Positions 3,566 through 32,000 of a DNA stretch of 32,000 bases are shown here, piece by piece; positions within the stretch are counted from its first letter, which is position 1, and every line of letters begins with the position of its first letter. The translations under genes were made by a program, and so were the position numbers. The DNA is from Paenarthrobacter sp. Z7-10 (GTDB lineage: Bacteria > Actinomycetota > Actinomycetes > Actinomycetales > Micrococcaceae). Below the pieces are notes generated by a model, which was not told where the DNA came from, made no database searches, and saw nothing but the letters and a program-made list of their open reading frames with translations. The stretch spans positions 7,993 to 39,992 of the forward strand of contig NZ_JADPVH010000028.1 of NCBI RefSeq assembly GCF_026932795.1. The letters run 5' to 3'.

Positions 3566-4705
3566 ATGAATGAGGCGGAACGCGTCGTCACCTCTCGAAT
3601 GGGCAGAATCCGGAACACGCTGACGCTGCGCGAGTGGCTCTCCCTTTCGGGGATGGCTGCGTTCGTAGCCTTTTTGCATGTGCTCGGTTGGGGTGTCCTG
3701 CTGGCAATTGTTGCGCCCAGGAATTACCAGGTTGGCTCCACGGCGGTGTTCGGGGTGGGACTTGGTGTCACCGCCTACACGCTGGGACTGCGCCATGCCT
3801 TCGATGCCGATCACATTGCCGCCATTGACAGTACAACCCGAAAACTGATGAACGATGGAAAGCGGCCGCTCTCCGTGGGTTTCTGGTTTTCTCTGGGCCA
3901 CTCCAGCATTGTGTTCGCCCTTTGTGCGTTGCTGGCGCTGGGGGTGCGGGCCTTTGCGGCCGAGGTCGACTCGGACTCCTCCGCCCTGCACGCCCTGCTG
4001 GGGCTGATCGGAACCGGAGTCTCCGGCGTGTTCCTCTACATTCTGGGCATTCTCAATCTGGTTATTCTGCTTGGCATCGTCAAGGTCTTCCGCCGGATGC
4101 GGCAGGGCGAGTTCGACGAATCGGCACTGGAGCGGCAGCTCAACAGGCGGGGCCTGATGAACCGCATCTTTGGCGGCGCCACCCGAATCGTCAGCCGGCC
4201 GTGGCAGATGTACATCGTGGGCCTGATGTTCGGTTTCGGCTTTGACACCGCCACGGAAGTCAGCCTGCTCGTGCTGGCCGGTGGTGCAGCAGCCTTTTCG
4301 CTCCCCTGGTATGCCATTTTGACCCTGCCCGTGCTCTTCGCCGCTGGAATGAGTCTGCTCGATGCCATCGACGGCTGCTTCATGAACTTCGCCTACGGCT
4401 GGGCATTCTCCAAACCGGTCCGCAAAATTTACTACAACCTGGTCATTACTGGTCTCTCCGTTGCCGTGGCGCTGGTCATCGGATCCATCGAGCTCACCTC
4501 CATCCTGGTGGACAAGGCGGGCATTCACTCCGGACCGCTGGCCGCGATCGGCCGAATGGACCTGAACAGCGTCGGCTACGCCATTCTTGCCATCTTTATC
4601 CTGGCTTGGGTCATCGCCGCCGGAGTTTGGAAATTCGGGCACATCGAGGACAAGTGGACCCTCGCTTTAAAGCGGCCCAGCACCGTGGACAGTCCTGACC
4701 TCTGA
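3566..4705 (+). CDS. hoxN: HoxN/HupN/NixA-family (NiCoT) nickel/cobalt permease
   Basis: Carries the NiCoT signature segment LRHAFDADHIAAIDSTTRKL (HX4DH), a second motif FWFSLGHSSIV, and about eight hydrophobic helices. It sits directly upstream of hypA and hypB. Confidence 0.9.
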   Translation: MNEAERVVTSRMGRIRNTLTLREWLSLSGMAAFVAFLHVLGWGVLLAIVAPRNYQVGSTAVFGVGLGVTAYTLGLRHAFDADHIAAIDSTTRKLMNDGKRPLSVGFWFSLGHSSIVFALCALLALGVRAFAAEVDSDSSALHALLGLIGTGVSGVFLYILGILNLVILLGIVKVFRRMRQGEFDESALERQLNRRGLMNRIFGGATRIVSRPWQMYIVGLMFGFGFDTATEVSLLVLAGGAAAFSLPWYAILTLPVLFAAGMSLLDAIDGCFMNFAYGWAFSKPVRKIYYNLVITGLSVAVALVIGSIELTSILVDKAGIHSGPLAAIGRMDLNSVGYAILAIFILAWVIAAGVWKFGHIEDKWTLALKRPSTVDSPDL

Positions 4706-6022: not shown

Positions 6023-7081
6023 ATGCCTACCGCCACTTCAGCAAAGGCCGAAGAGACGCTCATCCACGTGCTGTGGATTAATGCCGGGCTCAGTTGCGAC
6101 GGCGACTCCGTAGCCCTGACCGCCGCCACACAGCCGAGTGTGGAGGAGATTGCCCTTGGTGCACTCCCCGGGCTGCCCAAGGTCGCTATGCACTGGCCAC
6201 TGATTGACTTTGAATGCGGCCCGCAGGAGGGTGCCGACGATTTCCTCGAGTGGTTCCGCAAAGCCGACCGGGGCGAATTGGAACCGTTCGTGCTGGTGGT
6301 GGAGGGCTCCATACCGAACGAAAAGCTGCACGCGGAGGGCGGCTATTGGTCCGGCTTCGGCAACAACCTTGAAACCGGGCAGCCAATCACCACCAGCGAG
6401 TGGCTGGACCGGCTCGCGCCCAAGGCAACTGCGATCATTGCCGCCGGAACATGTGCCACCTACGGCGGAATTCACGCGATGGCAGGCAACCCCACCGGTG
6501 CCATGGGAGTTCCCGACTATTTGGGCTACGACTGGAAATCCAAGGCCGGCATTCCGATTGTCTGTGTGCCCGGCTGCCCCATCCAACCGGACAACCTCTC
6601 CGAGACCATCACCTACCTGCTGTATCAGGCGACAGGCCAATCGCCGATGATTCCCCTCGACGAGGCGTTGCGGCCCACCTGGCTTTTCGGCAACACCGTC
6701 CATGAGGGCTGCGATCGCGCCGGTTACTACGAGCAGGGGGATTTTGCCACCGAGTACGGTTCGCCCAAGTGCATAGTCAAGCTTGGCTGCTGGGGGCCGG
6801 TGGTTAAATGCAATGTGCCCAAACGCGGCTGGATGAACGGAATCGGCGGCTGCCCCAATGTCGGCGGAATCTGCATCGGCTGCACCATGCCGGGCTTCCC
6901 CGACAAATTTATGCCCTTCATGGATGAACCTCCCGGTGGCAAACTTTCCACCACCGCCGTCATGCCCTACGGGTCCACGATCCGCAATCTGCGCCGGATC
7001 ACCACCAAAACGCTGGACAAAGAACCGCGCTGGCGCAAGCCCGGACGCGAGCTGCTGACCGGCGCGAAGCGAACCTGGTAG
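6023..7081 (+). CDS. hhyS: [NiFe]-hydrogenase small subunit, group 1h/5 type, with no Tat signal
   Basis: RBS aaaggagg lies upstream. The protein starts MPTATSAKAEETLIHVLWINAGLSCDGDS, so the proximal-cluster cysteines appear at once with no RRxFxK leader. It also has GTCATYGG and VPGCP motifs. Confidence 0.93.
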   Translation: MPTATSAKAEETLIHVLWINAGLSCDGDSVALTAATQPSVEEIALGALPGLPKVAMHWPLIDFECGPQEGADDFLEWFRKADRGELEPFVLVVEGSIPNEKLHAEGGYWSGFGNNLETGQPITTSEWLDRLAPKATAIIAAGTCATYGGIHAMAGNPTGAMGVPDYLGYDWKSKAGIPIVCVPGCPIQPDNLSETITYLLYQATGQSPMIPLDEALRPTWLFGNTVHEGCDRAGYYEQGDFATEYGSPKCIVKLGCWGPVVKCNVPKRGWMNGIGGCPNVGGICIGCTMPGFPDKFMPFMDEPPGGKLSTTAVMPYGSTIRNLRRITTKTLDKEPRWRKPGRELLTGAKRTW

Positions 7082-7106
7082 TACACCAAGTGAGAGAGGC
7101 AATGAA

Positions 7107-8900
7107 ATGACTTCGACGATTCCGATGCCTGCCAAGGGCGGGACCACCGACGATGGCCTTGTGGAGATGGCGTGGGATCCGATCACGAGAATCGTCGGCA
7201 GCCTGGGCATCTACACAAAGATCGACTTCAAAAACAAGGAAGTGGTGGAGTGCAAGAGCACCTCCTCGATCTTCCGCGGCTACTCCATTTTCATGAAGGG
7301 CAAGGACCCGCGGGATGCCCACTTCATCACCAGCCGGATCTGCGGGATCTGTGGCGATAACCACGCCACCTGCTCGTGCTATGCGCAGAACATGGCCTAT
7401 GGGGTTAAGCCTCCGCACCTGGGCGAATGGATCGTGAACCTGGGTGAGGCCGCCGAGTACATGTTCGACCACAACATCTTCCAGGAAAATCTGGTGGGCG
7501 TGGACTACTGCGAAAAGATGGTCTCCGAAACGAATCCGGCGGTCCTGGCCAAGGCTGAAAACACCCGTGCCCCGCACGAGGGCGAGCACGGCTACCGCAC
7601 CATCGCTGACATCATGCGCTCACTGAATCCCTTCACCGGTGAGTTCTACCGCGAGGCCCTGCAGGTGAGCCGGTTGACGCGGGAGATGTTCTGCCTGATG
7701 GAGGGCCGGCATGTGCACCCGTCCACCTTGTATCCCGGCGGCGTTGGCACCGTCGCCACCATCCAGCTGATGACGGATTACATCACCCGGCTGATGCGGT
7801 ACGTGGAGTTCATGAAGAAGGTCGTGCCAATGCATGATGACCTCTTCGACTTCTTCTACGACGCCCTGCCGGGGTACGAACAGGTGGGGCTGCGCCGGAC
7901 ACTGCTGGGCTGCTGGGGGTCCTTCCAGGATCCCGAATTCTGCAATTTCGCCTACAAGGACATGACGGAGTGGGGCCGGAAGATGTTCGTGACCCCCGGC
8001 GTCGTGGTCGATGGAAAGCTGGTGACCACGGATCTGGTTCGGATCAATCTGGGCATCCGGATCATGCTCGGCTCCTCGTACTACGAGGACTGGAATGACC
8101 AGGAGATGTTCGTAACCAATGATCCGCTAGGCAATCCGGTGGACCGTCGCCATCCTTGGAACCAGCACACCAACCCGAAGCCGCAGCGCCGTGATCTGGA
8201 GGATAAATACAGTTGGGTGATGTCGCCGCGCTGGTTTGACGGCACCGACAACCTGGCACTGGATACCGGCGGCGGACCACTGGCCCGGCTCTGGTCGACG
8301 GCGCTGGCCGGGCTGGTCGACATCGGCTACATCAAGTCCACCGGCCAGAGCGTGCAGATCAACCTGCCCAAGACCGCTCTAAAGGGGCCGGTGGAACTGG
8401 AGTGGAAAATCCCGCAGTGGAGCAACACGCTGGAGCGCAACCGGGCGCGTACCTACTTCCAGGCCTACGCCGCCGCCGCCGCCCTGCACTTCGCGGAAAA
8501 GGCGCTGGAGGAAATCCGGGCCGGGCGAACCAAAACCTGGGAGTCTTTTGAAGTCCCGGACGAGGCCGTCAGCTGCGGCTTCACCGAGGCCGTCCGCGGG
8601 GTGCTTTCCCACCACATGGTGATCCGGGACGGCAAAATCGCCAATTACCATCCCTACCCGCCGACGCCGTGGAACGCCAGTCCCCGCGATGCATCGGGAA
8701 CTCCCGGGCCATACGAGGACGCGGTGCAGGGCCAGCCCATATTCGAGGAAAACGACCGGGAGCACTTCAAGGGGATTGACATTATGCGCACGGTCCGCAG
8801 CTTCGATCCCTGCCTGCCGTGCGGGGTTCACATGTACATGGGCGACGGCAAGTCCCTGGACCTGCTGCACTCACCCACGCAGTCACTCACCGGAGAATAG
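7107..8900 (+). CDS. hhyL: [NiFe]-hydrogenase large subunit, group 1h/5 type
   Basis: N-terminal metal-binding motif TSRICGICGDNH and C-terminal motif SFDPCLPCGVH, followed by a 22-aa tail that would be removed by the endopeptidase. RBS gagagagg at 7092-7099. Confidence 0.95.
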   Translation: MTSTIPMPAKGGTTDDGLVEMAWDPITRIVGSLGIYTKIDFKNKEVVECKSTSSIFRGYSIFMKGKDPRDAHFITSRICGICGDNHATCSCYAQNMAYGVKPPHLGEWIVNLGEAAEYMFDHNIFQENLVGVDYCEKMVSETNPAVLAKAENTRAPHEGEHGYRTIADIMRSLNPFTGEFYREALQVSRLTREMFCLMEGRHVHPSTLYPGGVGTVATIQLMTDYITRLMRYVEFMKKVVPMHDDLFDFFYDALPGYEQVGLRRTLLGCWGSFQDPEFCNFAYKDMTEWGRKMFVTPGVVVDGKLVTTDLVRINLGIRIMLGSSYYEDWNDQEMFVTNDPLGNPVDRRHPWNQHTNPKPQRRDLEDKYSWVMSPRWFDGTDNLALDTGGGPLARLWSTALAGLVDIGYIKSTGQSVQINLPKTALKGPVELEWKIPQWSNTLERNRARTYFQAYAAAAALHFAEKALEEIRAGRTKTWESFEVPDEAVSCGFTEAVRGVLSHHMVIRDGKIANYHPYPPTPWNASPRDASGTPGPYEDAVQGQPIFEENDREHFKGIDIMRTVRSFDPCLPCGVHMYMGDGKSLDLLHSPTQSLTGE

Positions 8901-8902
8901 CG

Positions 8903-9871
8903 GTGGCCGGCCAAGGCGCGGTGGTTGCTGCCGGGGAAGCGCAGTTCCGGGCCGCCGGGGAGCGGATCAGCACCCTGCTGGATGGGCTGTCGGCCGGTGG
9001 CGCCGTAGCCCACGAACGAGCCGAAGAGCTGGTGCGGCAGGTAACGGACCTGTACGGCGCGGGGCTGGAACGCATCTTGGGCGTGCTCAGTGAGCGGGGA
9101 GCCCTCGACGACGACACGCTGGAAGCCCTCTGCGCCGATGAGCTGATCTGCGGTCTTCTGCTGGTCCACGGCCTGCACCCGCAGGACGTTCCGGCCCGGG
9201 TGTCGGCCGCGCTGGAGAGCGTGCGCCCGTATCTGGGATCACACGGCGGGGACGTCGAACTGCTGGGCATCGACGACGACGGCGTGGTGCGCCTGCGTCT
9301 GCTCGGCAGCTGCCACGGCTGCCCGTCGTCGTCAGTCACACTGAAGCTGGCCGTCGAGGACGCCATCCTCTCCGCCGCGCCGGAGGTGACATCCATCCAA
9401 GTCCAGGCGGAGGAGCAACCGGCCGCGTCCCCGGCCCTGATCCCCCTCGAAGCGCTGCGGCTCCGCCTGGACCAGCCTGGGAGCGGGCACGGCACCGGCT
9501 CGCCGGCCGGTGCTTGGGAGTCCGCTCCGGAACTGGCCGGGCTGGAACCCGGTGAAGTGGCAGGCTTCCTGATCGGCTCCGTGCCGGTGCTCGCCTGCCG
9601 GTCCGGCCAAGATATCTATGCGTACCGGGACTATTGCCCGCGCTGCACGGGTTCGCTGGCGGGAGCCGTGCTGCAGCGCGCCCTGGCCGCCGCCGCCGGC
9701 GGTGGTTTGCTGCGCTGTCCCACCTGCCGCAGCCACTTCGACGTCCGCAAGGCGGGGATCTGTCTGGAGGAGACGGACCTGCACCTTGACCCACTGCCGC
9801 TGTTGGTGCGCAGCGGCGTTCTGTCCGTGGCCGTGCCCGTTTCGGTGCCCGTGGCCGGGGGCACGGCGTAA
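8903..9871 (+). CDS. hhyE: HhyE-like putative Fe-S protein: NifU-like domain plus a Rieske-like domain with all-Cys ligands
   Basis: GTG 8903 lies 2 nt after the hhyL stop, in the frame of track ORF 8819..9871. The NifU C-terminal-type segment is LGSHGGDVELLGIDDDGVVRLRLLGSCHGCPSS. The C-terminal half has YCPRCTGSL ... LRCPTCRSHFDVRKAG, arranged like Rieske CxH...CxxH boxes. Confidence 0.75.
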   Translation: MAGQGAVVAAGEAQFRAAGERISTLLDGLSAGGAVAHERAEELVRQVTDLYGAGLERILGVLSERGALDDDTLEALCADELICGLLLVHGLHPQDVPARVSAALESVRPYLGSHGGDVELLGIDDDGVVRLRLLGSCHGCPSSSVTLKLAVEDAILSAAPEVTSIQVQAEEQPAASPALIPLEALRLRLDQPGSGHGTGSPAGAWESAPELAGLEPGEVAGFLIGSVPVLACRSGQDIYAYRDYCPRCTGSLAGAVLQRALAAAAGGGLLRCPTCRSHFDVRKAGICLEETDLHLDPLPLLVRSGVLSVAVPVSVPVAGGTA

Positions 9872-18025: not shown

Positions 18026-19423
18026 TTAGACTCCGACCTTCTCGCCCTGAGCCAACGGCCCAGCTACGACGGGTTCCTCCAACTCATCCTGGCTCCCGGT
18101 TGTCTCGCCGTGGGCCAGCATGGTGGACTCGTCGAACGGTTCCAGCCGGTCCAGCACGCGGTCAACACGGGCCCGGTCAATTTCCTTGACCCAGGTCCCC
18201 ATCAGGACGGTGGCAACGGCGTTGCCGGTGAAGTTGGTCAGCGCCCGTGCCTCGGACATAAACCGGTCGATGCCGACAATGAAGGACACGCCGCCCACCA
18301 GGTCCGGGCGGTGGGAGGCAAGGCCGCCCGCAAGGGTCGCCAGACCCGCGCCGCTGACCCCGGCAGCTCCCTTGGAGGCCAGGATCATGAAGACCAGCAG
18401 GCCAATCTGCGATCCGAGATCCAACGGCTTGCCGAGCGCGGAGGCCACAAAGAGCGCTGCCATGGTCAGGTAAATGGCCGTGCCGTCCAGGTTGAACGAG
18501 TACCCGGTGGGAACGGTTATGCCCACCACCGGCTTGGACACGCCGAGGTGTTCCATCTTGGCGATCAGGCGGGGCAGCGCCACCTCGGAGGATGAGGTGG
18601 AGACGATCAGCAAATATTCGCGGCCCAGGTAGCGCATCAGTTTGAAGATATTAACCCCGGTGACCAGCTTCAGCAGGCTGCCCAGAATCACCACGATGAA
18701 GATGACGCAGGTGAGGTAGAAGGCTCCCATCAGGGACAGCAGGCTCAGCACGGCCTGCCAGCCGGTCAGGCCGACGACGGCGGCGATCGCACCAAACGCT
18801 CCCACCGGAGCCAGCCACATGACCATGATCAGGATGCGGAACACCAGCGCCTGGATGTAGCTGATGCCGGTCAACACCGCCTTGCCGGTTTTGCCCATCC
18901 GCTGCAGCGCAAAGCCTGTCAGCAGCGCCACCAGCAGGGTCTGCAGGATGTTGCCGGCCGTGAGCGAGGAAACCAGGGACGTTGGAATGATGCCAAGCAC
19001 GAACTCCGTGGCCGAGGAACTCTCCGCCGGGGCCTTGTAGACCGCGTCCTTGAGGTGCAGGCCCGCACCGGGATGGATGATGTTACCCACCACCAGTCCG
19101 ATGGCCAGGGCAAAAGTGGACATCACCATGAAGTACGCCAGCGCCATCCCGCCCACCTTGCCCACCGTGGCAGCCTTGGTGATGGAACCGATGCCCAGCA
19201 CGATGGTGCAGAAAATGATGGGCGCGATCATCATTTTGATTAGACCGATGAAACCGTCGCCAAGCGGCTTCAACTGTGCGGCGAAGCCGTCCTTGCCCGG
19301 GAAGGACAACCCGACGATGACGCCAAGAATTACCGCCACAACGACGGCGATGTATAACCAATGAGACTTATCCAGCTGCTTACGGCGGACCGGTGCGGTT
19401 GACTCTCTTCGCTGAGAGGTCAT
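18026..19423 (-). CDS. dctA: C4-dicarboxylate/cation symporter (DAACS family)
   Basis: IKMMIAPIIFCTIVLGI, STSSSEVALP and GAAGVSGAG motifs; 465 aa; RBS aaggag upstream of ATG 19423. Confidence 0.92.
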   Translation of the reverse strand: MTSQRRESTAPVRRKQLDKSHWLYIAVVVAVILGVIVGLSFPGKDGFAAQLKPLGDGFIGLIKMMIAPIIFCTIVLGIGSITKAATVGKVGGMALAYFMVMSTFALAIGLVVGNIIHPGAGLHLKDAVYKAPAESSSATEFVLGIIPTSLVSSLTAGNILQTLLVALLTGFALQRMGKTGKAVLTGISYIQALVFRILIMVMWLAPVGAFGAIAAVVGLTGWQAVLSLLSLMGAFYLTCVIFIVVILGSLLKLVTGVNIFKLMRYLGREYLLIVSTSSSEVALPRLIAKMEHLGVSKPVVGITVPTGYSFNLDGTAIYLTMAALFVASALGKPLDLGSQIGLLVFMILASKGAAGVSGAGLATLAGGLASHRPDLVGGVSFIVGIDRFMSEARALTNFTGNAVATVLMGTWVKEIDRARVDRVLDRLEPFDESTMLAHGETTGSQDELEEPVVAGPLAQGEKVGV

Positions 19424-19445
19424 GGGGGGGCACTCCTTGAATGTT

Positions 19446-19537
19446 GGATGGAATTGAAACGAAGGGAATGGAGCAGGAATCGAAGACGGGTGGAATTGTG
19501 AACGGAAGGAATTGAGTACGGAGGGAATTGAACGTAC
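19446..19537 (-). promoter_or_regulatory. Array of degenerate GGnGGAATTGA-type repeats in the dctA upstream/leader region
   Basis: GGAATTGA at 19450, 19508 and 19524; GGAATTGT at 19492; weaker GGAATGGA at 19465 and GGAATCGA at 19476. The last three strong copies are spaced 16 bp apart. The plus strand is locally low in GC and purine-rich. Confidence 0.55.
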
Positions 19538-19708
19538 GGCTTGGTGGTCAAGTGGCTAGGCTGGAAAGAGCGGAACTCTCTTGGGCACTTGAACCAGCAT
19601 GGCGCCAACTGTGACTATGCTCACCCTTGCGGTCATATTGTTCACAGCCAGGAGAGCCGGCGCCCGCTGTCCCTCTTTTATCCCGATTGTTCACGAAAGG
19701 AGCCGGAG

Positions 19709-21469
19709 ATGATTTTCCAGAACTGGAGTATTGCCCGCCGGCTTTTCGTTGGACAGTTGGTGTTCCTGCTGGCCTTGACGGCGGTCGTGGGAACGGCGGC
19801 CGTGCTCGACTCCCGCGACAGGCTATACGGCCAGGCGGAGGAACGGATGGCCGCAATTGCAACCACCATTGCGGACAGTCCGCTGGTCCTGCAGGCCGCC
19901 GGATCGTCCGATCCGAGTGCCCTGCTGCAGCCCTACGCCCGAGCGGTGATGGCCGGTGCCCGGGTGGACTTCATCACCATTATGGCGACGGACCGGACCC
20001 GGTGGACGCACCCAACACCATCGGAGATCGGCAAAAAATACATCGGCTCCATCGACCAGGCACTTGCCGGTCGGACGTACACCGAAATTACCGCCGGCAC
20101 GCTGGGTCCGTCCGTACGTGCGATAGTTCCCGTGCGGGACGCCGCCGGCAAGGTCCAGGCCCTCGTTGCGGTGGGCATGGCCGTAACAAATCTCCAAGTG
20201 GCTCTCAATGGCAGGCTGCCGGCCATTCTCGAGCTGGCCCTCGCACTGCTGTTGGGTGGTTCGCTGGCTTCGTGGCTGCTGGGCAGGTATTTGGCCCGGG
20301 TAACTCTGGGGTGGGGACCGGAACGCTTGGGCCAGCTGTTTGTCTATTACGAATCTGTGCTGCACTCGGTCCGCGACGGGCTGGTCCTGGTGGACCGCAA
20401 TGGGGAGCTGGTGATGTACAACGACCAGGCTGCCGAGCTGCTCGGAATAGCCGCACCCGTGGAAAACCAGTCTTCCCCCCGGCTGGAAGCGCTGAATCTA
20501 CCCGACAGCCTGGATGCGCTGCTGCGCAGCGGCCGCACCGCCCGGGATGAAATTCACCTGACCGACACGCGGCTGCTGGTGGTCAGCCAGGAACCGGCGC
20601 GCTCCCCCGAAGCCATGCCCGCGGGCTCCCGTGCCGCCTTCAGCCCGGCGGACGAGGCGTCCACACCGCCGGAGGGGAAGTTCCGCAAGGCCCGCCGGCC
20701 CAGGATCGGCACGGTGACTATGCTGCAGGATCACACCGCGCTGATGGAACTGGCTGACGAGCTGCGCTCGACCAGAACCCTGACGGACGCGCTTAGGGCC
20801 CAAACACACGAACATGCCAACCGGATCCATACACTGGTGTCGCTGCTGGAGCTGGGCCGCACCGCCCAGGCCCTGGAATTTGCAACGGCGGATCTGCAGC
20901 TGAGCCAACAATTGGCCGACGAGGTGGTGAGCTCGGTCGATGAGCCTGTGGTTGGCGCACTGCTGATGGGCAAAATGTCGCAGGCCAGCGAACGCGGAAT
21001 TGAGCTGCGGGTCAACACGGAAGCGGTTCCCTCACCGGCGGTGCTGAGCGCCCATGACGCCGTAACCATCCTGGGAAACCTGATTGACAACGCAATGGAC
21101 GCCGCAGCCGAAGGCCAGGAGCCGCGGTGGGTGGAGGTAGCCATCCGCAGCACGGCGGATTCGCTGGTCCTGGAGGTTTCCGACAGCGGCTCCGGTATTG
21201 ACCTTGACGAGGCGCAGAAAGTACTCGCACACGGTTACAGCACGAAGAAAGGCGAACGCCACGGGCGCGGAATCGGCCTGGCTTTGGTCAGGCAGTCCGT
21301 TCAGAGGCTTGGCGGAGAACTGCGGATCAGCCAGCGGCAGGGCGCGGTTTTCACCATCACCCTTCCGCGGGAGCGTGCCGCCAGCCCGACCGGCAGCGGC
21401 ACCCCTAACGGCGACCCTGCCGGCGGCCCGGCCGAAAAGAAGACTCTGGATGGGAGCCGAAGATGGTGA
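19709..21469 (+). CDS. DcuS/CitA-family sensor histidine kinase
   Basis: ATG 19709 follows aaggag (19694-19699). Two TM segments flank an extracytoplasmic domain. H-box QTHEHANRIHTLVSLLELG, N-box LGNLIDNAMDA, G-box GRGIGLALV. Confidence 0.88.
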   Translation: MIFQNWSIARRLFVGQLVFLLALTAVVGTAAVLDSRDRLYGQAEERMAAIATTIADSPLVLQAAGSSDPSALLQPYARAVMAGARVDFITIMATDRTRWTHPTPSEIGKKYIGSIDQALAGRTYTEITAGTLGPSVRAIVPVRDAAGKVQALVAVGMAVTNLQVALNGRLPAILELALALLLGGSLASWLLGRYLARVTLGWGPERLGQLFVYYESVLHSVRDGLVLVDRNGELVMYNDQAAELLGIAAPVENQSSPRLEALNLPDSLDALLRSGRTARDEIHLTDTRLLVVSQEPARSPEAMPAGSRAAFSPADEASTPPEGKFRKARRPRIGTVTMLQDHTALMELADELRSTRTLTDALRAQTHEHANRIHTLVSLLELGRTAQALEFATADLQLSQQLADEVVSSVDEPVVGALLMGKMSQASERGIELRVNTEAVPSPAVLSAHDAVTILGNLIDNAMDAAAEGQEPRWVEVAIRSTADSLVLEVSDSGSGIDLDEAQKVLAHGYSTKKGERHGRGIGLALVRQSVQRLGGELRISQRQGAVFTITLPRERAASPTGSGTPNGDPAGGPAEKKTLDGSRRW

Positions 21470-22200
21470 GGGATGCTGCGAAGAGTCCTTCACCGCAGCC
21501 CGCCGACCACCCCATCCGGGTGCTCGTGGTCGATGATGAACCGATCTCCGCCGATGCCCACGCGGTCTACGTGCAGCGGTTGGAAGGCTTCGCTCTTGCG
21601 GGCGTGGCGCACGATGGACAAGGCGCGCTGCGCAGCCTGCAGGATGCGGCTGCTGCCGGGACACCTGTTGATCTGATCCTGCTCGACATGAACCTCCCGG
21701 ATCTCCATGGCCTGGACGTCAGCCGGCGCATTCGTTCCGCCGGGAACGCGGTGGACATTATTGCCATCACGGCGGTCCGGGAACTGACGATAGTGCGCGG
21801 AGCCATTTCCGCGGGGATCGTCCAATACCTGATCAAACCCTTTACGTACGCCACCTTCGCGGAGAAACTGGCCAATTATCGGGCGTTCCGGCGCCAATTG
21901 GAGACACAGTCCGCGTCCGCTTCACAAACCGGTGTCGATCAGGCTTTCGCCAGTCTCCGCAGCCCCGTGGACGTGCCCTTGCCCAAGGGGCTCTCGGACG
22001 GAACGCTGGCCGCCGTCGTCGTGCTGCTCAAATCCCGCCAAGGACCCGTCTCCGCGGCCGAGGTGATGGAGCAGTTGGGCATGTCCCGGGTGACGGCACG
22101 GCGTTATCTGGAGTATTTGGCCGAGCAAGGGTCGGTTCGCCGTGATGCCCGCTACGGGACCCCCGGGCGGCCGGAAAATGAATATCGCTGGCTTCGTTAG
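21463..22200 (+). CDS. DcuR/CitB-family response regulator
   Basis: Receiver motifs IRVLVVDDEP, DLILLDMNLPD and YLIKPF; C-terminal HTH SRVTARRYLEYL. The start overlaps the kinase stop. Confidence 0.9.
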   Translation: MVRDAAKSPSPQPADHPIRVLVVDDEPISADAHAVYVQRLEGFALAGVAHDGQGALRSLQDAAAAGTPVDLILLDMNLPDLHGLDVSRRIRSAGNAVDIIAITAVRELTIVRGAISAGIVQYLIKPFTYATFAEKLANYRAFRRQLETQSASASQTGVDQAFASLRSPVDVPLPKGLSDGTLAAVVVLLKSRQGPVSAAEVMEQLGMSRVTARRYLEYLAEQGSVRRDARYGTPGRPENEYRWLR

Positions 22201-23612
22201 CCCGGTCGGGCGGTTGATGAAGCCACGTCCGTGGAAGGCACGACGTTCAGCGAGGTCATCATTCGTTTCAGGAACAGGTACTCCTCGGAGTGCATGAAGA
22301 CGCGCGCCCCATCGAGGGAATCAAAAACGTGGACGGCTCCGTTGTGCCGGCCGGACCCGACGCTGTCCGGATATTTTTCGCTCTGCTCCGCGAACGAAAC
22401 CGTCACCGGGACGGCACCAACGGGCCGCACCGCGACATTGGGATGTGTGCAGGGATCGGGCACATCGATTTCACCGCTGATGGCAATGGACGAGATGGTC
22501 ACCGGCCCAGCGGCCAGCCCGCTCACGCGGTAGACAAACTGCACCGCGCTGTTCCCCCCTGCGCCAACGCCGGGAACGGGGGCGCGGTCCAAGGTCGAGA
22601 CCATTTTGGAGCCGACACAGGGAGGTCCGATCGGAAAGCCAGCCACCGCGTAGCTCAGTGCGGCCACGATGGCGCCGTGCCCATTGAAGACCAGGGCGGA
22701 AAAGTTCGGTTCCGGTCCCAGCGCGCTGCCGACTGTATCAATCAGCCAGCCGGGCGGCAGGTCAAAAGAGAGGGCCTTACCGGCGGAGCCGAACACGGTC
22801 CAGCCCTTGAAGGGCCCGACGACCGTGTGTGCTGCGGTGCCGGGACCCGCCGTGTCCGAGGGTAGCCCAAAGGCCGTTACGGCACCGCCCTCGCCAACCG
22901 GACCAGCCGGTTTCAGCAGAAAAAGCCCCGTGGCTATCAGCACCACGATCACGGCCACGCTCACGGCGGCGGCCGTGGCCGGAAGCCGCCGTTTCCGCGG
23001 CTCCCGCAACGGCACTTGGGCCACTGCGTGCAGATTATCGCCGCCGGCATCGCTGCCCCGGACTCGATCCAGGATTTCCGCGGCCAGCAGGTCATCGTGC
23101 AAGATGCCGCACGCCGGATCCAGGGCCGCGAACTCCTCGGTCACGACGACGGTGCTCCAGCTCCGGGCGCCCTTCCGTTCCGGCTCCAGCACTTCCGCCG
23201 CGGCCGCGAGCGCAGCAAGCGCGCCCCGCCGGTCCCGCCGCACCGTCCGTTCGCTTTCCTCCAGGACGGCTGCGGTCCAATTCGGCGCCAAGGCGTCCCA
23301 ACAGCTCAAGATGAGGTGCTCCCGGTGTCGCTGCGCCAGCCCCGACCAGGCCATCGAGAGCACGGAGTCGTTGTCCGGGTCCAGCGGTGAGGCGGTGCCC
23401 GATACGGCGCGCCATATTCCTTCGGCTTGAAACAGGAGCCAGGGCAGGGCCGCGGTGTCCGCCGTCGCCTGCCGTTGCCAGGCGAGCTCATAAACGCGCT
23501 GCGCCGCGGCCACGGCCTCGGCCTCGATAAGCCGGCGGCGGAAGAATGCCAGCACGCGGGGAAAATTGTCCGTTTGAGCGGCCGTGAAGTCGAAATCCAC
23601 TTCCCTGAGCAT
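22197..23612 (-). CDS. ECF-sigma-like domain / single TM / extracytoplasmic domain protein (paralog A)
   Basis: ATG 23612 gives MLREVDFDF..., which aligns with the paralog start MLAELENDF. It has a sigma-4-like LAQRHREHLILSCWDAL...ERTVRRDRRGAL, then EPRKRRLPATAAAVSVAVIVVLIATGLFLL (TM), then an ectodomain with 2 Cys and the motif FLKRMMTSL near the C-terminus. Confidence 0.7.
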   Translation of the reverse strand: MLREVDFDFTAAQTDNFPRVLAFFRRRLIEAEAVAAAQRVYELAWQRQATADTAALPWLLFQAEGIWRAVSGTASPLDPDNDSVLSMAWSGLAQRHREHLILSCWDALAPNWTAAVLEESERTVRRDRRGALAALAAAAEVLEPERKGARSWSTVVVTEEFAALDPACGILHDDLLAAEILDRVRGSDAGGDNLHAVAQVPLREPRKRRLPATAAAVSVAVIVVLIATGLFLLKPAGPVGEGGAVTAFGLPSDTAGPGTAAHTVVGPFKGWTVFGSAGKALSFDLPPGWLIDTVGSALGPEPNFSALVFNGHGAIVAALSYAVAGFPIGPPCVGSKMVSTLDRAPVPGVGAGGNSAVQFVYRVSGLAAGPVTISSIAISGEIDVPDPCTHPNVAVRPVGAVPVTVSFAEQSEKYPDSVGSGRHNGAVHVFDSLDGARVFMHSEEYLFLKRMMTSLNVVPSTDVASSTARPG

Positions 23613-23751
23613 CGGCACCCCTCAGTCGGGCCGTTCCGGTCCTTTGACTTCAGCATAGCAATGGGGGCCAGCGGCAACGCTGTGTTTTTCCTGTTCCCCC
23701 GGTTAGGAGCGGCTGCACCAGGCCGAATCGAGAGCGCGTCGGTGCCGAGCT

Positions 23752-23773
23752 GACTGTATACATGGATACAGTC
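23752..23773. promoter_or_regulatory. Candidate GntR operator 1: inverted repeat containing TGTATACA
   Basis: gactgtat-acatgg-atacagtc has perfect 8-bp arms. The embedded 8-bp palindrome TGTATACA is at 23755-23762. It lies about 100 bp upstream of the GntR gene. Confidence 0.55.
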
Positions 23774-23807: not shown

Positions 23808-23838
23808 GGAGTCTTAGTTGTATACACTGGAAGTCTCC
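23808..23838. promoter_or_regulatory. Candidate GntR operator 2: second TGTATACA inside a longer imperfect inverted repeat
   Basis: ggagtctt-agttgtatacactgg-aagtctcc. TGTATACA is at 23819-23826, 64 bp from the first copy and about 40 bp upstream of ATG 23866. Confidence 0.5.
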
Positions 23839-28178: not shown

Positions 28179-28224
28179 GGAGCTGAATGCGGCCCGGCCT
28201 GTCCGCCGGACCGCATTCAGCTCC
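28179..28224. terminator. Strong hairpin between convergent prpC and the NUDIX gene (bidirectional terminator)
   Basis: ggagctgaatgcgg (28179-28192) pairs with ccgcattcagctcc (28211-28224). After one mismatch, five more base pairs form (ccggc/gccgg). Confidence 0.8.
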
Positions 28225-28724
28225 TAAGTCAGTGCAGCGGGTGACCACACCGCCGCAATGGAGTCCGCCACGGTTTCGTTGTCATCATTGAGCACCACCC
28301 GTACGGCCAATCGTTCCCCGGTCAGCATGGCCGGGAGCCAGTGCTGAGCATCGGCCCACATCCGCTGGTGCGGCAGGACCGCCACCGGGTGCCATTCGGG
28401 CGCAATCTCGTCGCTCTCGGTGGCTTCCCCGTTGAAGGTCCGGGCTAGGAAGATCGTGGCGAACATGTTCCATTCGGTCTTCGCCGGAAAAACGAACTCC
28501 ACCGTCCCCGCGGGAATTAGATCCGCCGGGAGTACCAGCACGCCCACTTCTTCGGCCACCTCGCGGCAAACCGCCTGCTCCGGGCTCTCCCCCAGCTCCA
28601 GGTGGCCACCAATGCCCACGATCTTTCCGGTGCCAAATCCCGCTTTCTTCAGGCCCAGCAGGACCTCCGGACCCTGAGTGGAATCCCGGACCAGGAAGCA
28701 CAGTGTCACAGCGGCTGCTCTCAT
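28224..28724 (-). CDS. NUDIX hydrolase
   Basis: Nudix box GGHLELGESPEQAVCREVAEEVG (GX5EX7REUXEEXGU); 166 aa. Confidence 0.88.
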   Translation of the reverse strand: MRAAAVTLCFLVRDSTQGPEVLLGLKKAGFGTGKIVGIGGHLELGESPEQAVCREVAEEVGVLVLPADLIPAGTVEFVFPAKTEWNMFATIFLARTFNGEATESDEIAPEWHPVAVLPHQRMWADAQHWLPAMLTGERLAVRVVLNDDNETVADSIAAVWSPAALT

Positions 28725-28769: not shown

Positions 28770-29750
28770 CTAAAAGTGCCATGGCCGCATTGGCTGACCG
28801 GGCTTCCCCAAAAGCTCGGTTTCCATCGTGCAAACGCTCTCGACTGCACAGCCGCTGGTCGGTATCCCATCGCTGATGGGGCGTGCGCCACCGTGCGCGG
28901 CTATGGCTCCACTGCGCAGGGTCCCCGGTGGGGGCATCCGCAGGGTCAGGGGCGTGGGCATCCGCAGGGTCAGGGGCGCGGAGGAAAAACCCTCGGCGTC
29001 CCGGGAAAATTGTTCCTGGCCATCCAGGGGCCAGACGCTCTTCAGGTCCGAGGCTCCCAAAACCAGCAGGGCGGCAGTTTCGGCCATGGCAAGCACCGGC
29101 CATGCGCTCCGGTGCGCGCTGGCGGGAGGGACTCCTCCTCCCGCTCCAGAGGCGTGCTCGTCGGTAAAGATAGTGGCATTGTCCGCAATTTTTTTCAAGA
29201 TCCGGCGTCCGAGCAGGACGTCCTCGGCCGCCGCAGCGGCGCCGCAACCGTGCGCCGGGTCGATGGCCTGCAGTTCAGAGACTGTCGGAAAGCCGCAACC
29301 AACCGCAGAGTCCGCCGCTGTGCTGCCACCCGCACGGGCCACCGCGTAGGCCCGCCGGGCCAGCCGAAGCCGCCACTGGACGCGCCACCGGTTCTGATCG
29401 AGAAGGCCGGATATTTCGGGGATGCGCAGCCCGTCCCAAAGTGCCAGCATCAATATCTCGCGGTCGCTGCCCCGCAACGAGGCAAAAGCCACGGCGGCCG
29501 CAGAACCACCAAATGCTGTCCGCTCCGGTCCCGCAGCCCCGCTGAGCAGCAGCGACCGGGCCCATTTGAGCTGCGGCACTAACCGATAGGAGTCCGGCTG
29601 CCAGCCAATTTGCTGAGCGAGCCGGCAAATGGTCTCGGCTGCCCGCCGCGACTGCGATTCCGTGGCCAAACGCCGCCGGAAAAAACCGAGCACAGGCAGG
29701 AAGTTCGCCAGTTCCCTGACGGAAAAATCATTCTCCAGTTCTGCCAGCAT
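28770..29750 (-). CDS. ECF-sigma-like paralog B, truncated form lacking the ectodomain (possibly decaying)
   Basis: MLAELENDFSVRELANFLPVLGFFRRRL...; sigma-4-like LRGSDREILMLALWDGLRIPEISGLLDQNRWRVQWRLRLARRAY; shared segment IDPAHGCG...LLGRRILKKI; weak hydrophobic stretch WPVLAMAETAALLVLGA; then only about 85 aa including a duplicated PLTLRMP. Confidence 0.6.
   Translation of the reverse strand: MLAELENDFSVRELANFLPVLGFFRRRLATESQSRRAAETICRLAQQIGWQPDSYRLVPQLKWARSLLLSGAAGPERTAFGGSAAAVAFASLRGSDREILMLALWDGLRIPEISGLLDQNRWRVQWRLRLARRAYAVARAGGSTAADSAVGCGFPTVSELQAIDPAHGCGAAAAAEDVLLGRRILKKIADNATIFTDEHASGAGGGVPPASAHRSAWPVLAMAETAALLVLGASDLKSVWPLDGQEQFSRDAEGFSSAPLTLRMPTPLTLRMPPPGTLRSGAIAAHGGARPISDGIPTSGCAVESVCTMETELLGKPGQPMRPWHF
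28932..28979 (-). repeat. Two in-frame tandem copies of a 24-bp unit
   Basis: gggcatccgcagggtcaggggcgt (28932-28955) and gggcatccgcagggtcaggggcgc (28956-28979). On the minus strand they encode PLTLRMPTPLTLRMPP. Confidence 0.9.
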
Positions 29751-29794
29751 GATTCCTGCTTCCGAGCCGACACCCTACCTATAGGGTAGCGCCG

Positions 29795-31660
29795 TCAGGG
29801 ACCGTTGCCCACAAGCTTTTCGCGCAGTGCCACCGGTATCCCGGCGGCTTCGAAGTTGCGGTCCATCCATTGGCCGGAAGTCTGGCCGGCGGCCGCGGTA
29901 CGGTCCATCAGCTCAGCCCAGCCCAGTACCTGCGCGGACGGTAACTCCGGGTCGTACATGTAGCCGACGCCATCTTGTTTCGCGAAATAAATCAGCTTGG
30001 GCCGTGCTGGGGCGGATTGATACGTGGCCCGGAAGGCCATCCATTCATCGGCGCACCCCAACACCACAAAATAATCCGGATGGTCCTCGTAGGTTGTGTC
30101 ATTGTTCGGCCCGCGCACATTGGAAATCTCGCAGGCTGGTTTACCCGTTGAAGGATTCATAACGATGGTGCGCACTGGCGTTGGTACGGATTTGATCCGC
30201 AGGGAGGTCATCATGCGTTTGGTGTTGGCGTAGTCCGTGGTGGCCTGATAAGCGCGAGCCTGCGCCATATTGTGGAAAAAGAGTCCGGCGGGCGACCCCC
30301 CGCCACTGCTGGCCCGTCCCGGATAGGGCAGCTCCTCCTGCCCACCGAAGGCAACGTAGAGCAGGCCTCCCGCGCCCTGCTGCTGGACAATGTCCGGCTC
30401 GGTGCAGCCGGCAGAGTGTAGGGCAAACGATCCGTCGCTTATTCCGAGTGTGGAGCGTACTGGAGTTCCGTCCAGCACCTGGTAACGGAAGGTGGGAACG
30501 TTGCCGGGCCGCGCCGGGTTCAGTCCAGGGACGGGGATCGAGTCCAGACTGACCGACCGCCCCTGTTCCTTGGGATCCAGGGAACAGGTACTCGGGACGT
30601 CAGCCCGGCTGCCAAGATTCAGAACACCCTTGACGGCGCCATTCCGGTCCATTACCTGCGCATACAACGTGGATCGGTTTCCCCGCGTGGTCGACACCGA
30701 GTTGACCGTCCACGTGGGCGCCAGCTCAAAGGACACCGATGTGTTTAGTGCCTCAAACCGGGACCAGTGCTCAAACGGGCCGTAGGTCCTGGAGGTTGTC
30801 GGTTCCGTAAATGACGGCGGGCTGCCGCCGGACAACCGCACCGTGGGTTGCGGCGGCGTGGTCGGTGGCGGGGAATTGAGGCTGACGCCGGCCACCAGCG
30901 CGGTCGCGGCGGCGGCGACAAGCACCAACCCGGCCACCGCAGGCCGGGAACTGCGGCGGCGCCGGGAACCGGGCCTGCCGGTGCGTGTGCTGGGCTTCCG
31001 GAAGCGGGCTTGAACGCCGGCACCGCCGCTGACGCTGACACTGTCGCCGTCACTGACACTGCCACCGTCGCTGTCGCTTTCGCTGTCGCTGATAAGCAAG
31101 CCTTCGTCGCTGATCCGGCGCAGGACTCGAAGGCACAGTGCCTCCTCCGCTCGGTGCTCCCGGTGCAGCGGGTCCAACCTGGACATTGCGGCGGGGTCCA
31201 GCCCCAGCGCTGCCGCCAGTGTGGTGGTGGCAGCGCGCAGCCGCCGGTTTATCCGGCGGGAGGCACTTCCTGTTACCTCTGCAATCTCCTGGCAGCTGAG
31301 CCCATCCCAGTAGGCCAGCACAAGCAGTTCGCGATCACCAGGACTGAGACCACGCCAGCGGCGGTCCTGGTCCGTGCCGCCGGGAAAAGGAAGGATATCG
31401 GCGTGATGGGCACCCGGTTCCAGCTCCTCCTTCCAGAGCAGGTGGCTGTGGCGCAGAAGCAACAGGTCATTGACTTCTGCAGTTCCATCCTGGAACCAGT
31501 CGGCGAATGCCGCCCGGAAGACGGTCTTTGTGGCGTCCTCCGGCGGGGCGCCCGGAGCCAATCGCCGGCTGAAATAGCCGTTGACCTTATGAAAACTGGC
31601 TTGGTGCAGGCCTGCGAAGTCCACCGGAGTTGCCATCTCGCCAACTGGCTCCGCGCGCAT
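29795..31660 (-). CDS. ECF-sigma-like domain / single TM / large extracytoplasmic domain protein (paralog C)
   Basis: Sigma-2-like FHKVNGYFSRRL...PEDATKTVFRAAF. Sigma-4 HTH LSPGDRELLVLAYWDGLSCQEIAEVTGSASRRINRRLRAA. An Asp/Ser-rich then Arg-rich linker, TM AVAGLVLVAAAATALVAGV, a Pro-rich stalk, an ectodomain with TKRMMTSL, and an extra 129-aa C-terminal module. The start is uncertain (ATG 31660 chosen; ATG 31636 and TTG 31666 are alternatives). Confidence 0.7.
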   Translation of the reverse strand: MRAEPVGEMATPVDFAGLHQASFHKVNGYFSRRLAPGAPPEDATKTVFRAAFADWFQDGTAEVNDLLLLRHSHLLWKEELEPGAHHADILPFPGGTDQDRRWRGLSPGDRELLVLAYWDGLSCQEIAEVTGSASRRINRRLRAATTTLAAALGLDPAAMSRLDPLHREHRAEEALCLRVLRRISDEGLLISDSESDSDGGSVSDGDSVSVSGGAGVQARFRKPSTRTGRPGSRRRRSSRPAVAGLVLVAAAATALVAGVSLNSPPPTTPPQPTVRLSGGSPPSFTEPTTSRTYGPFEHWSRFEALNTSVSFELAPTWTVNSVSTTRGNRSTLYAQVMDRNGAVKGVLNLGSRADVPSTCSLDPKEQGRSVSLDSIPVPGLNPARPGNVPTFRYQVLDGTPVRSTLGISDGSFALHSAGCTEPDIVQQQGAGGLLYVAFGGQEELPYPGRASSGGGSPAGLFFHNMAQARAYQATTDYANTKRMMTSLRIKSVPTPVRTIVMNPSTGKPACEISNVRGPNNDTTYEDHPDYFVVLGCADEWMAFRATYQSAPARPKLIYFAKQDGVGYMYDPELPSAQVLGWAELMDRTAAAGQTSGQWMDRNFEAAGIPVALREKLVGNGP

Positions 31661-31771
31661 GCTCAACCCCGATCGTCGTCGAACCTTTCTCCATCATTGT
31701 CACGCACCCGGCTGCGGTTTGGTTCCCACCAACGCCTGGGACCGCGCAGGGGATACACCGAAAGCATGAAC

Positions 31772-32000
31772 TCAGCGATGGCCGGTTCCGGCGGCTAACC
31801 CCGCGGAGCCGGTGGACTGTGGAACGAGCTTCAGCGACACCAGCATCCGTTTAAAGTCCTGGTATTCAGCGCTTTGCATATACCACTCGGCCTGGTCCAC
31901 GGTGTCGAACGTGTGCAGCGACGGACCAAGTCCCTGGGCCGCAGCCGCGGCGGGGACAGGTTGCAGGATCTGCTGGTCGGCGAACGAGAAATAGGAAGCC
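31772..32000 (-). CDS. C-terminal fragment of a fourth paralog (D) of the sigma-like membrane protein family; the N-terminus lies outside the window
   Basis: Open-ended minus-strand frame that is not in the ORF track. It reads ...SLHTFDTVDQAEWYMQSAEYQDFKRMLVSLKLVPQSTGSAGLAAGTGHR*, with the stop at 31772-31774. This aligns with HVFDSLDGARVFMHSEEYLFLKRMMTSLNVVPS (paralog A) and FFHNMAQARAYQATTDYANTKRMMTSLRIKSVP (paralog C). Confidence 0.55.
   Translation of the reverse strand, partial: ASYFSFADQQILQPVPAAAAAQGLGPSLHTFDTVDQAEWYMQSAEYQDFKRMLVSLKLVPQSTGSAGLAAGTGHR

Follow-up and report, generated by a model that had tools for sequence, protein, structure and literature searches.

Within a stretch of 32,000 nt from Paenarthrobacter sp. 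Z7-10 (contig NZ_JADPVH010000028.1, positions 7,993 to 39,992; the whole of this stretch is called the window here), four minus-strand genes, A, B, C and D, raise the question of what a module resembling an extracytoplasmic function (ECF) sigma factor is doing in one polypeptide with a transmembrane (TM) segment and a domain outside the cell. D, C and B follow one another in an array, and A is set apart from them by a GntR-prpDBC operon. A previous description of this DNA, made without database searches (the sequence-only reading), had taken the four for paralogs encoding membrane-tethered, ECF-sigma-like proteins. Our comparisons indicate that the window proteins are very probably fusions of an ECF sigma factor with its cognate single-pass membrane partner, a putative anti-sigma factor or sensor, and that sister species have a gene for each.

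Kinship of the four proteins and origin of the N-terminal module

The four open reading frames (ORFs) were located at the positions proposed for them, and tblastn within the window aligned A with C over nearly the full length (E=2.6e-18), D with A (E=3.7e-9) and B with A over the N-terminal 125 residues only (E=1.5e-8). At a mutual identity of about 30%, this similarity is well beyond chance, and by this measure A, B, C and D are paralogs, as had been claimed. The complete D protein, P0004 (WP_269046443.1, 503 aa), was found by exhaustive profile search; its C-terminal 75 residues show 100% identity to the window's portion of D, and it consists of a sigma-like module, a TM segment and an ectodomain, E1. 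The architecture that the sequence-only reading ascribed to all full-length members is thus shared by A, C and D, and did not hold for B, which has no ectodomain at all. B stops about 25 residues into a second ectodomain, E2, as this is defined by P0006 (427 aa), a B-like fused orthologue that retains E2 and, on metagenome contigs, has xerD on one side and the Nudix/prpC genes on the other. Apparently B is a shortened and perhaps decaying member of the family, since its ectodomain is lost, its TM segment is degraded and it holds an internal 24-bp tandem repeat. Existing annotations of such proteins vary, the labels being "hypothetical", "sigma-70 region 4 domain-containing" or "RNA polymerase sigma factor".

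A profile built from C, A and P0002 (the metagenome orthologue of C, 68% identical) was searched against 1.84 billion representative proteins and returned 224 matches at E<=1e-3, which fall into three classes. In class 1, profile positions of about 10-155 span nearly the whole of ECF sigma factors of 160-200 aa (E 1e-8 to 1e-4), and those class-1 proteins that were scanned are bona fide ECF sigma factors with both Sigma70_r2 and Sigma70_r4_2 and TIGR02937 scores of 51-74 bits. Residues F17, V28, RR34-35, F50, A53 and WL69-70 are conserved in a 74-sequence alignment, where sigma4 is nearly canonical (DRE.L.L.YWDGLS..EIA). The Pfam profile Sigma70_r4_2 (PF08281, cut-off 25.7 bits) scores 29.3 bits in C and 27.2 bits in D; B, at 15.2 bits, does not reach the cut-off and A gives no match. 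An AlphaFold2 model of C residues 1-205 (pLDDT 80.5, pTM 0.69) contains three sigma2 and four sigma4 helices followed by a juxtamembrane helix of lower confidence. Its top matches in the PDB are RpoE/NepR (5uxx), SigW/RsiW, CnrH/CnrY, SigG1 and PhyR (Foldseek probability 1.0, TM-score 0.62-0.66), and the ECF sigma factors among them are in compact, anti-sigma-bound states. Homology to ECF sigma factors over both sigma2 and sigma4, together with this predicted two-domain fold, marks the N-terminal module as a descendant of ECF sigma factors and bears out the sigma-2-like and sigma-4-like segments noticed before. Word-index homologue searches with C and A had returned only the queries themselves and one orthologue, missing even paralog D, probably because low-complexity words crowded the candidate list.

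One ORF in the window, two genes in sister species

The relationship between the sigma-like module and the rest of the protein became apparent from the surroundings of its relatives. Stand-alone E1 proteins of Arthrobacter sp. U41 and strain RHLT1-20 are encoded between a small Nudix gene and prpC-prpB-prpD-GntR, a neighborhood that matches that of B, C and D in the window. With one genome per species and an alignment of closer E1 sequences, a genome scan found 28 Arthrobacter/Pseudarthrobacter loci, of which nearly all occupy this Nudix/prpC site, and domain hidden Markov models (HMMs) were applied to their ORFs; an earlier scan with the fused-family alignment had yielded no loci, and the 35-domain E1 alignment was too diverse for pattern design. 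At none of the 28 loci do the sigma module and a TM-E1 or TM-E2 region share one ORF, and at 21 of them there are one or two pairs of neighboring genes, each made up of a sigma gene and a TM-E1 or TM-E2 gene, with a junction that consists of a stop codon, 1-3 nt and an ATG (two examples are given in Table 1). Elsewhere, the genes of the nearest free ECF sigma factors likewise overlap a gene downstream of them whose product is a single-pass membrane protein that starts with a similar N-terminus.

The split sigma factors scored at sister loci reach 35.2 and 24.4 with Sigma70_r2, 53.9 with Sigma70_r4_2 and 61.7 and 63.1 with TIGR02937, and by these scores are ordinary ECF sigma factors. Their partners, including the short cytoplasmic N-terminus (MDPIKNLI..DP...), match no known anti-sigma domain or other family. 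Fused ORFs were found only in the window, L001, L007/L008, P0252 and P0254, all but the window being independent metagenome contigs and metagenome-assembled genomes. The occurrence of split pairs at one shared locus in sister species argues that the window proteins are an ECF sigma factor fused to its cognate membrane partner. This fusion had been missed by the sequence-only reading, along with the presence of two ectodomain modules, the truncation of B and the existence of a known class of hybrids.

Two other readings of these data were rejected. The fused ORFs are not sequencing frameshifts, as the same fusion is found in four paralogs and several independent assemblies, and the stand-alone E1 proteins are not orphans, as sigma genes lie 1-2 kb away in most loci. 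In other actinobacterial proteins, P0037 (425 aa) and P0055 (616 aa), an ECF core is followed by a DP-containing linker, one TM segment and entirely different outside domains, so that fusion of sigma factor and partner is a recurrent event in this ECF clade. At the locus of Arthrobacter sp. Y81, the first sigma gene (L035, 3026-3531) is split over two frames with two partial matches to the sigma module; it is a probable frameshifted pseudogene, showing turnover of sigma modules.

Topology and ectodomains

In A and in C, a single stretch of strong hydrophobicity follows an Arg cluster, in agreement with the stop-transfer sequence and single TM helix described before; in B the corresponding segment is weak (Kyte-Doolittle 1.49) and contains E and D. 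The positive-inside flanks of the TM segment would place the N-terminus inside and the C-terminus outside the cell. A juxtamembrane LDP...L..RIL helix occupies the position that the cytoplasmic N-terminus of the separate partner has in sister species. The similarity of the two is visible by eye, though it was not significant in either direction against shuffles, and the correspondence is, as far as these alignments go, positional only. Tandem repeats lie in frame in both B (28915-28978; 24-bp unit, 2.0-2.4 copies, encoding PLTLRMP(T/P)) and C (31027-31092; 6/18-bp, encoding a Ser/Asp/Gly-rich cytoplasmic stretch before the TM segment), which suggests slippage-prone, fast-changing linkers.

The second and third classes of profile matches define the parts outside the membrane: class 2 (positions 230-493) is E1 and class 3 (495-624) is E2. 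E1 has about 200 aa and the motifs W..F..SF.LP.GW, a Cys, LDS.P, PRFVYR and a second Cys, followed by EA.AYM.T.EY..LKRM.TSL. Across 35 E1 domains there is no variation at one F, one W, the two Cys and the S-L within KRM..SL, so that the two conserved Cys and the motif that had been singled out from the window alone hold across the family. An E1 profile search found 102 proteins; those with a named source all belong to Micrococcaceae or Leucobacter, their annotation is "hypothetical" or "lipoprotein", and a lipobox is present in some. Because of these lipobox forms, the invariant Cys pair and the positive-inside TM flanks, E1 is placed outside the cell. E2, of about 110 aa (C.I.N...HPEYF.VLGCA.GWMAF...MD..F..AGIP.ALR..LVG.GP), is the C-terminal extension of C and elsewhere is duplicated or paired with E1 in either order.

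Neither E1 nor E2 matches any Pfam or NCBIfam family, and PDB sequence and viral structure searches with the ectodomains were empty. In the AlphaFold2 model of C residues 285-623 (pLDDT 79.2), E1 is largely beta structure that ends in two helices, and E2 combines beta structure with three helices. Foldseek found nothing in the PDB at E<1e-3 for this model; the best-shaped matches for E1 were PsbP/CyanoP (2lnj/2xb3) and the uncharacterised Jonesia denitrificans structure 3lyd (E>=0.1, TM-score 0.37-0.48, probability 0.41-0.75), so that the predicted fold of E1 is at best weakly PsbP-like. Judged by these searches, E1 and E2 are two previously undescribed extracytoplasmic domain families, which agrees with the earlier statement that the ectodomain could be assigned to no characterised family. 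The sequence-only reading would have been given up had no sigma2/sigma4 fold or TM helix been predicted, or had the ectodomain belonged to a well-characterised family; a sigma2/sigma4 fold is predicted, a TM helix is present and the ectodomain has no characterised family.

Table 1. Genes, domains and elements discussed in the text, by position in the window; the last two rows use the coordinates of the respective sister locus.
Feature	Coordinates	Strand	Description
Gene A	22197-23618	minus	473 aa; 471 aa from ATG at 23612 (NCBI's call)
Parts of A			sigma-like module residues 9-144; TM about 210-236; E1 263-461
Gene B	28770-29750	minus	326 aa; sigma-like module, linker, degenerate TM
Gene C	29795-31666	minus	623 aa from TTG; 621 aa from ATG at 31660; sigma-like module, linker helix, low-complexity Ser/Asp/Gly, Arg-rich stop-transfer, TM, Pro-rich stalk, E1, E2
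C, sigma2+sigma4 module	31205..31618	minus	residues 17-154; helices 17-35, 42-60, 67-82 (sigma2) and 98-154 (sigma4)
C, juxtamembrane LDP...L..RIL helix	31106..31195	minus	residues 158-187
C, TM helix	30881..30949	minus	residues about 240-262; preceded by RRRRSSRP
C, ectodomain E1	30188..30796	minus	residues 291-493
C, ectodomain E2	29798..30142	minus	residues 509-623
Gene D, 3' end	31772->32000	minus	last 75 codons and stop; end of E1 with FKRMLVSL motif
Candidate ECF-type promoter	31701..31728	minus	D-C intergenic; GGGAACC, 15 nt, GCGTGA (GGAAC-N17-CGTG)
Small Nudix hydrolase gene	28224..28724	minus	about 160 aa; co-directional, 45 bp downstream of B
L018 split pair	sigma 1340-1846; partner 1851-2840		partner starts MDPIKNMISATDP, then TM, E1
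L012 split pair	sigma 2059-2559; partner 2565-3314		partner starts MDRIEQLM, then TM, E2

Function of a degenerate sigma module

A possible function follows from the layout of the fused proteins. The sigma module would be tethered at the membrane and held inactive through this tethering, perhaps with the help of the juxtamembrane helix, which stands where the partner has its cytoplasmic N-terminus. E1 and E2 would sense a signal in the envelope that leads to proteolysis, with a site-1 cleavage followed by an intramembrane protease, and the freed module would then associate with RNA polymerase and direct transcription at ECF-type promoters, for example the GGAAC-N17-CGTG element before C. This release-and-transcribe mechanism is modelled on IutY and the ECF48/52/53 hybrids and is offered tentatively, as a proposal that falls a little short of an even chance; the explanation as a whole, which blends it with the fusion claim, we regard as evenly poised. 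Between C and its orthologue, the ratio of nonsynonymous to synonymous substitution (dN/dS) is 0.30 for sigma2, 0.29 for sigma4, 0.31 for the linker, 0.54 for the low-complexity/TM stretch, 0.17 for E1 and 0.18 for E2; it is low throughout, and all parts of C are therefore under purifying selection.

A number of observations weigh against a functional, releasable sigma factor, foremost among them the state of the module itself. Sigma70_r2 (PF04542, cut-off 24 bits) gives no match at E<=10 in A, B, C, the D fragment or full-length D; among the profile searches that had been suggested for these proteins, the one for Sigma70_r4_2 thus succeeded for C and D and the one for Sigma70_r2 for none. Against the cut-off of 42.9 bits for TIGR02937 (sigma70-ECF), C scores 23.0 and D 18.5 bits in alignments that cover the sigma4 part only, and A and B have no match. 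Residues D44, W54, R83, R87 and R145, each conserved in 83-94% of free ECF sigma factors (n=66), are mostly lost (D44 is kept in two of six fused proteins, and W54, R83 and R145 in one of six each), and the near-invariant residues that are lost fall in regions 2.2, 2.4 and 4.2. Arginines of the recognition helix are gone from C, A and D, while B and P0006 keep an RL.RAR recognition helix. The distance from the WL of region 2.3 to the start of sigma4 is 27-36 residues in the fused proteins, compared with a median of 49 in free relatives (45-57 residues in 64/66), although two free relatives are equally short at 34-35 residues. In characterised ECF sigma factors the linker between sigma2 and sigma4 passes through the cleft of the polymerase, and transcripts of full length depend on it (PMC6648896). 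The module of A is the most degenerate among the paralogs and is without any Pfam match. The degeneracy suspected from the sigma-2-like region is therefore real, and by HMM thresholds the fused proteins are outside the ECF family, though clearly derived from it; with modules so visibly degenerate, output may be weak or altered.

The remaining points on this side concern evolution, inhibition and the surrounding genes. The sigma module of C evolves faster than the ectodomains, which is the reverse of the usual pattern in sigma/anti-sigma pairs. The juxtamembrane helix is modelled with a pLDDT of only 55-68, and between sigma4 and the TM segment there is no recognised anti-sigma domain (zf-HC2, RskA, FecR and CnrY have no match at E<=10 in A-D); the linker alignment also contains no conserved H/C motif of the ZAS zinc-finger type (H-x3-C-x2-C). 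No protease gene is evident near the paralog genes, and the GGAAC..CGT motif is absent or at chance level upstream of A, B and the split sigma genes.

Many of the same facts would be expected if the fused module no longer binds RNA polymerase or promoter productively and is instead a pseudo-sigma factor, serving as a decoy tethered to the membrane or in partner switching, much like the sigma-like domain of PhyR. It might, for example, bind the cytoplasmic tails of free E1/E2 partners or another anti-sigma factor and in this way tune a genuine ECF sigma factor encoded elsewhere. Such a role would fit the scores below the ECF thresholds and the loss of near-invariant residues in regions 2.2, 2.4 and 4.2, and also the weaker constraint on the sigma module relative to the ectodomains. 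In its compactness and its short linker the module is similar to the sigma-like domains of the PhyR type, and PhyR structures are among the top fold matches, but genuine ECF sigma factors match the fold with scores at least as high, and the weak matches to the PhyR family model NF006623 (15.7 bits in C and 17.1 in D) are far below its cut-off of 240. Moreover, the sigma4 core DRE..L.L..W is retained, as is the recognition helix of B and P0006, free ECF relatives have linkers that are equally short, and neither a candidate target anti-sigma factor nor a second sigma gene was found in the window. We consider the pseudo-sigma role a serious rival, if on the unlikely side. Its more elaborate form, a transmembrane, ligand-controlled partner switch in which the ectodomain gates capture of anti-sigma tails by the sigma mimic and thereby indirectly frees a genuine ECF sigma factor, seems rather improbable; if true, it would constitute a membrane-spanning analog of PhyR, a signalling logic undescribed for Gram-positive bacteria. 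The shorter fused module, its lost key residues and its weaker constraint hint at a drift toward a pseudo-sigma factor.

Other roles are less likely. The fusion could be vestigial, with the outside part, E1/E2, acting on a component of the envelope and the sigma-like module a leftover in a decaying array. E1 proteins without a sigma module, including lipoprotein forms, are indeed common in Micrococcaceae and occur at this locus too, and the lost ectodomain and degraded TM segment of B, along with the degenerate sigma module, are what decay would look like. This is hard to reconcile with purifying selection on the sigma module (dN/dS 0.3) or with the intact sigma-module ORF kept in four paralogs that are about 30% identical and in several independent metagenome orthologues, and the tight coupling of E1/E2 partners to a sigma gene in 21/28 sister loci argues for a regulatory link; we judge a vestigial fusion to be quite improbable. 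Least credible of all is a protein of the ToxR/CadC type that is never released and acts on DNA from the membrane through the sigma4 helix-turn-helix. In its favor, sigma4 is the best-conserved cytoplasmic part, and a cytoplasmic helix-turn-helix, one TM segment and an outside domain recall ToxR-like proteins. Against it, no isolated sigma4 is known to regulate on its own in the absence of RNA polymerase, the helices of sigma2 have been kept and are under constraint, and C, A and D no longer have the arginines of the recognition helix.

Candidate regulatory elements and neighboring genes

The -35 and -10 blocks of the candidate promoter upstream of C are conserved in the orthologous metagenome contig L001, where the spacer has diverged; the number of matches of the GGAAC-N17-CGTG type is not significant, with 0.67 expected per window. 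Split sigma genes carry different blocks about 60-110 nt upstream. In one group (L018, L028, L029, L032, L035, L038, L039 and L021) these read TGTAAC(C), about 17 nt, (G)AAACTA, and in the other (L012, L014, L019, L022, L024-L026, L032-L034, L036 and L038) TGTAAG(A), about 17 nt, ACACTTA. Both are candidates for autoregulated promoters of this ECF clade and differ from the GGGAACC...GCGTGA element upstream of C. A GGGTAGG/TAGGGT-like block is conserved upstream of B and its orthologues (window 29751-29794; L001 2005-2048; L007 about 4560-4624), and in the window a palindrome, CCTATAGG, lies about 25 nt before the start codon of B; these may represent a -10-like element or a small hairpin. No above-chance terminator-like sites were found between D, C, B and the Nudix gene.

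Between A and the divergently oriented gene for the GntR-family regulator of prpDBC, the intergenic DNA contains two perfect palindromes TGTATACA (23755-23762 and 23819-23826); the window has no others, and the expected number is 0.05. These sites are likely to be operators of this regulator, in which case paralog A would be under propionate/methylcitrate-linked control.

The small Nudix hydrolase gene adjoins sigma/partner or fused genes in nearly all related loci (L002, L003, L007 and L012-L039) and sometimes lies between two sigma/partner pairs; the association may be plain synteny or a functional link. On the other side of A, the region 18026-22200 encodes a sodium:dicarboxylate symporter on the minus strand and then, on the plus strand (19541-22200), a 642-aa sensor histidine kinase-like protein and a response regulator, the latter two identified by inspection of their translations. 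The stop of the response regulator gene overlaps that of A by 4 bp in convergent orientation. Farther upstream, genes for a NicO-type nickel transporter, the small and large subunits of a [NiFe]-hydrogenase and a NifU-like protein (3566-4705, 6023-8900 and 8819-9871) form a hydrogenase cluster that is unrelated to the sigma fusion.

Comparison with known systems

Membrane-tethered sigma/anti-sigma hybrids have been described before, namely IutY and the ECF48/52/53 proteins (PMC8999054), and the window proteins share the features of this class: a single polypeptide holds an ECF core, a TM segment and a C-terminal region outside the membrane, and there are homologues elsewhere that are split. 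The sequence-only reading had pointed to ECF41/42-type sigma factors as a known concept; the hybrids are closer to the window proteins. IutY of Pseudomonas putida (ECF243) has a FecR-like C-terminal part, functions in TonB-dependent cell-surface signalling and is processed, as found by experiment, by Prc and RseP (PMC8999054). Like the window proteins, it combines an N-terminal ECF sigma factor, one TM segment and an extracytoplasmic part corresponding to an anti-sigma factor, and related organisms have the sigma factor and this part as separate genes. Unlike IutY, the window proteins have no FecR or other recognised anti-sigma domain and carry new ectodomains in a Gram-positive host, and their processing is proposed by analogy.

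The actinobacterial ECF48/52/53 hybrids contain a ZAS domain, TM helices, a Pro-rich stalk and an outside domain, and their activation is predicted to be proteolytic (PMC8999054). SCO4117 of Streptomyces coelicolor and its relatives thus share with the window proteins an actinobacterial ECF core, a TM segment, a Pro-rich stalk outside the membrane and an extracytoplasmic domain. In contrast, they carry ZAS between sigma4 and the TM segment and, in SCO4117, a carbohydrate-binding domain, neither of which is found in the window proteins, whose sigma core is also below the ECF model thresholds. The split form in Arthrobacter has the same layout as sigmaE-RseA, SigW-RsiW and CnrH-CnrY, and the predicted fold of the module matches the sigma chains of such complexes; here the differences are that the N-terminus of the partner lies outside the known anti-sigma families and that in the window sigma factor and partner are covalently joined. 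PhyR offers another compact, degenerate, ECF-derived sigma2-sigma4 module joined to a sensory module, but it is soluble and fused to a phosphorylation-controlled receiver, while the module in the window is fused to a TM segment and ectodomains and has no receiver. PsbP/Mog1-like proteins (CyanoP 2lnj/2xb3, 3lyd) offer the best structural resemblance to E1, a weak one, in a beta-sandwich with C-terminal helices and an N-terminal W..F..SF.LP.GW strand motif; no family match exists at the level of sequence, and the Cys pair and KRM..SL helix are specific to E1.

In conclusion, the fused proteins resemble sigma/anti-sigma hybrids yet fall outside the domain definitions of the known hybrid groups, as they have no ZAS or FecR-type domain, and by the family searches made here the N-terminal segment of the partner is as undescribed as E1 and E2. 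A single chromosomal site in the Micrococcaceae provides a natural series of split and fused forms of one ECF sigma/partner system, which lets one ask what a covalent tie to a membrane regulator does to a sigma factor. Set beside the systems known so far, E1, E2 and a partner without a recognisable anti-sigma domain point to an undescribed actinobacterial class of ECF regulator.

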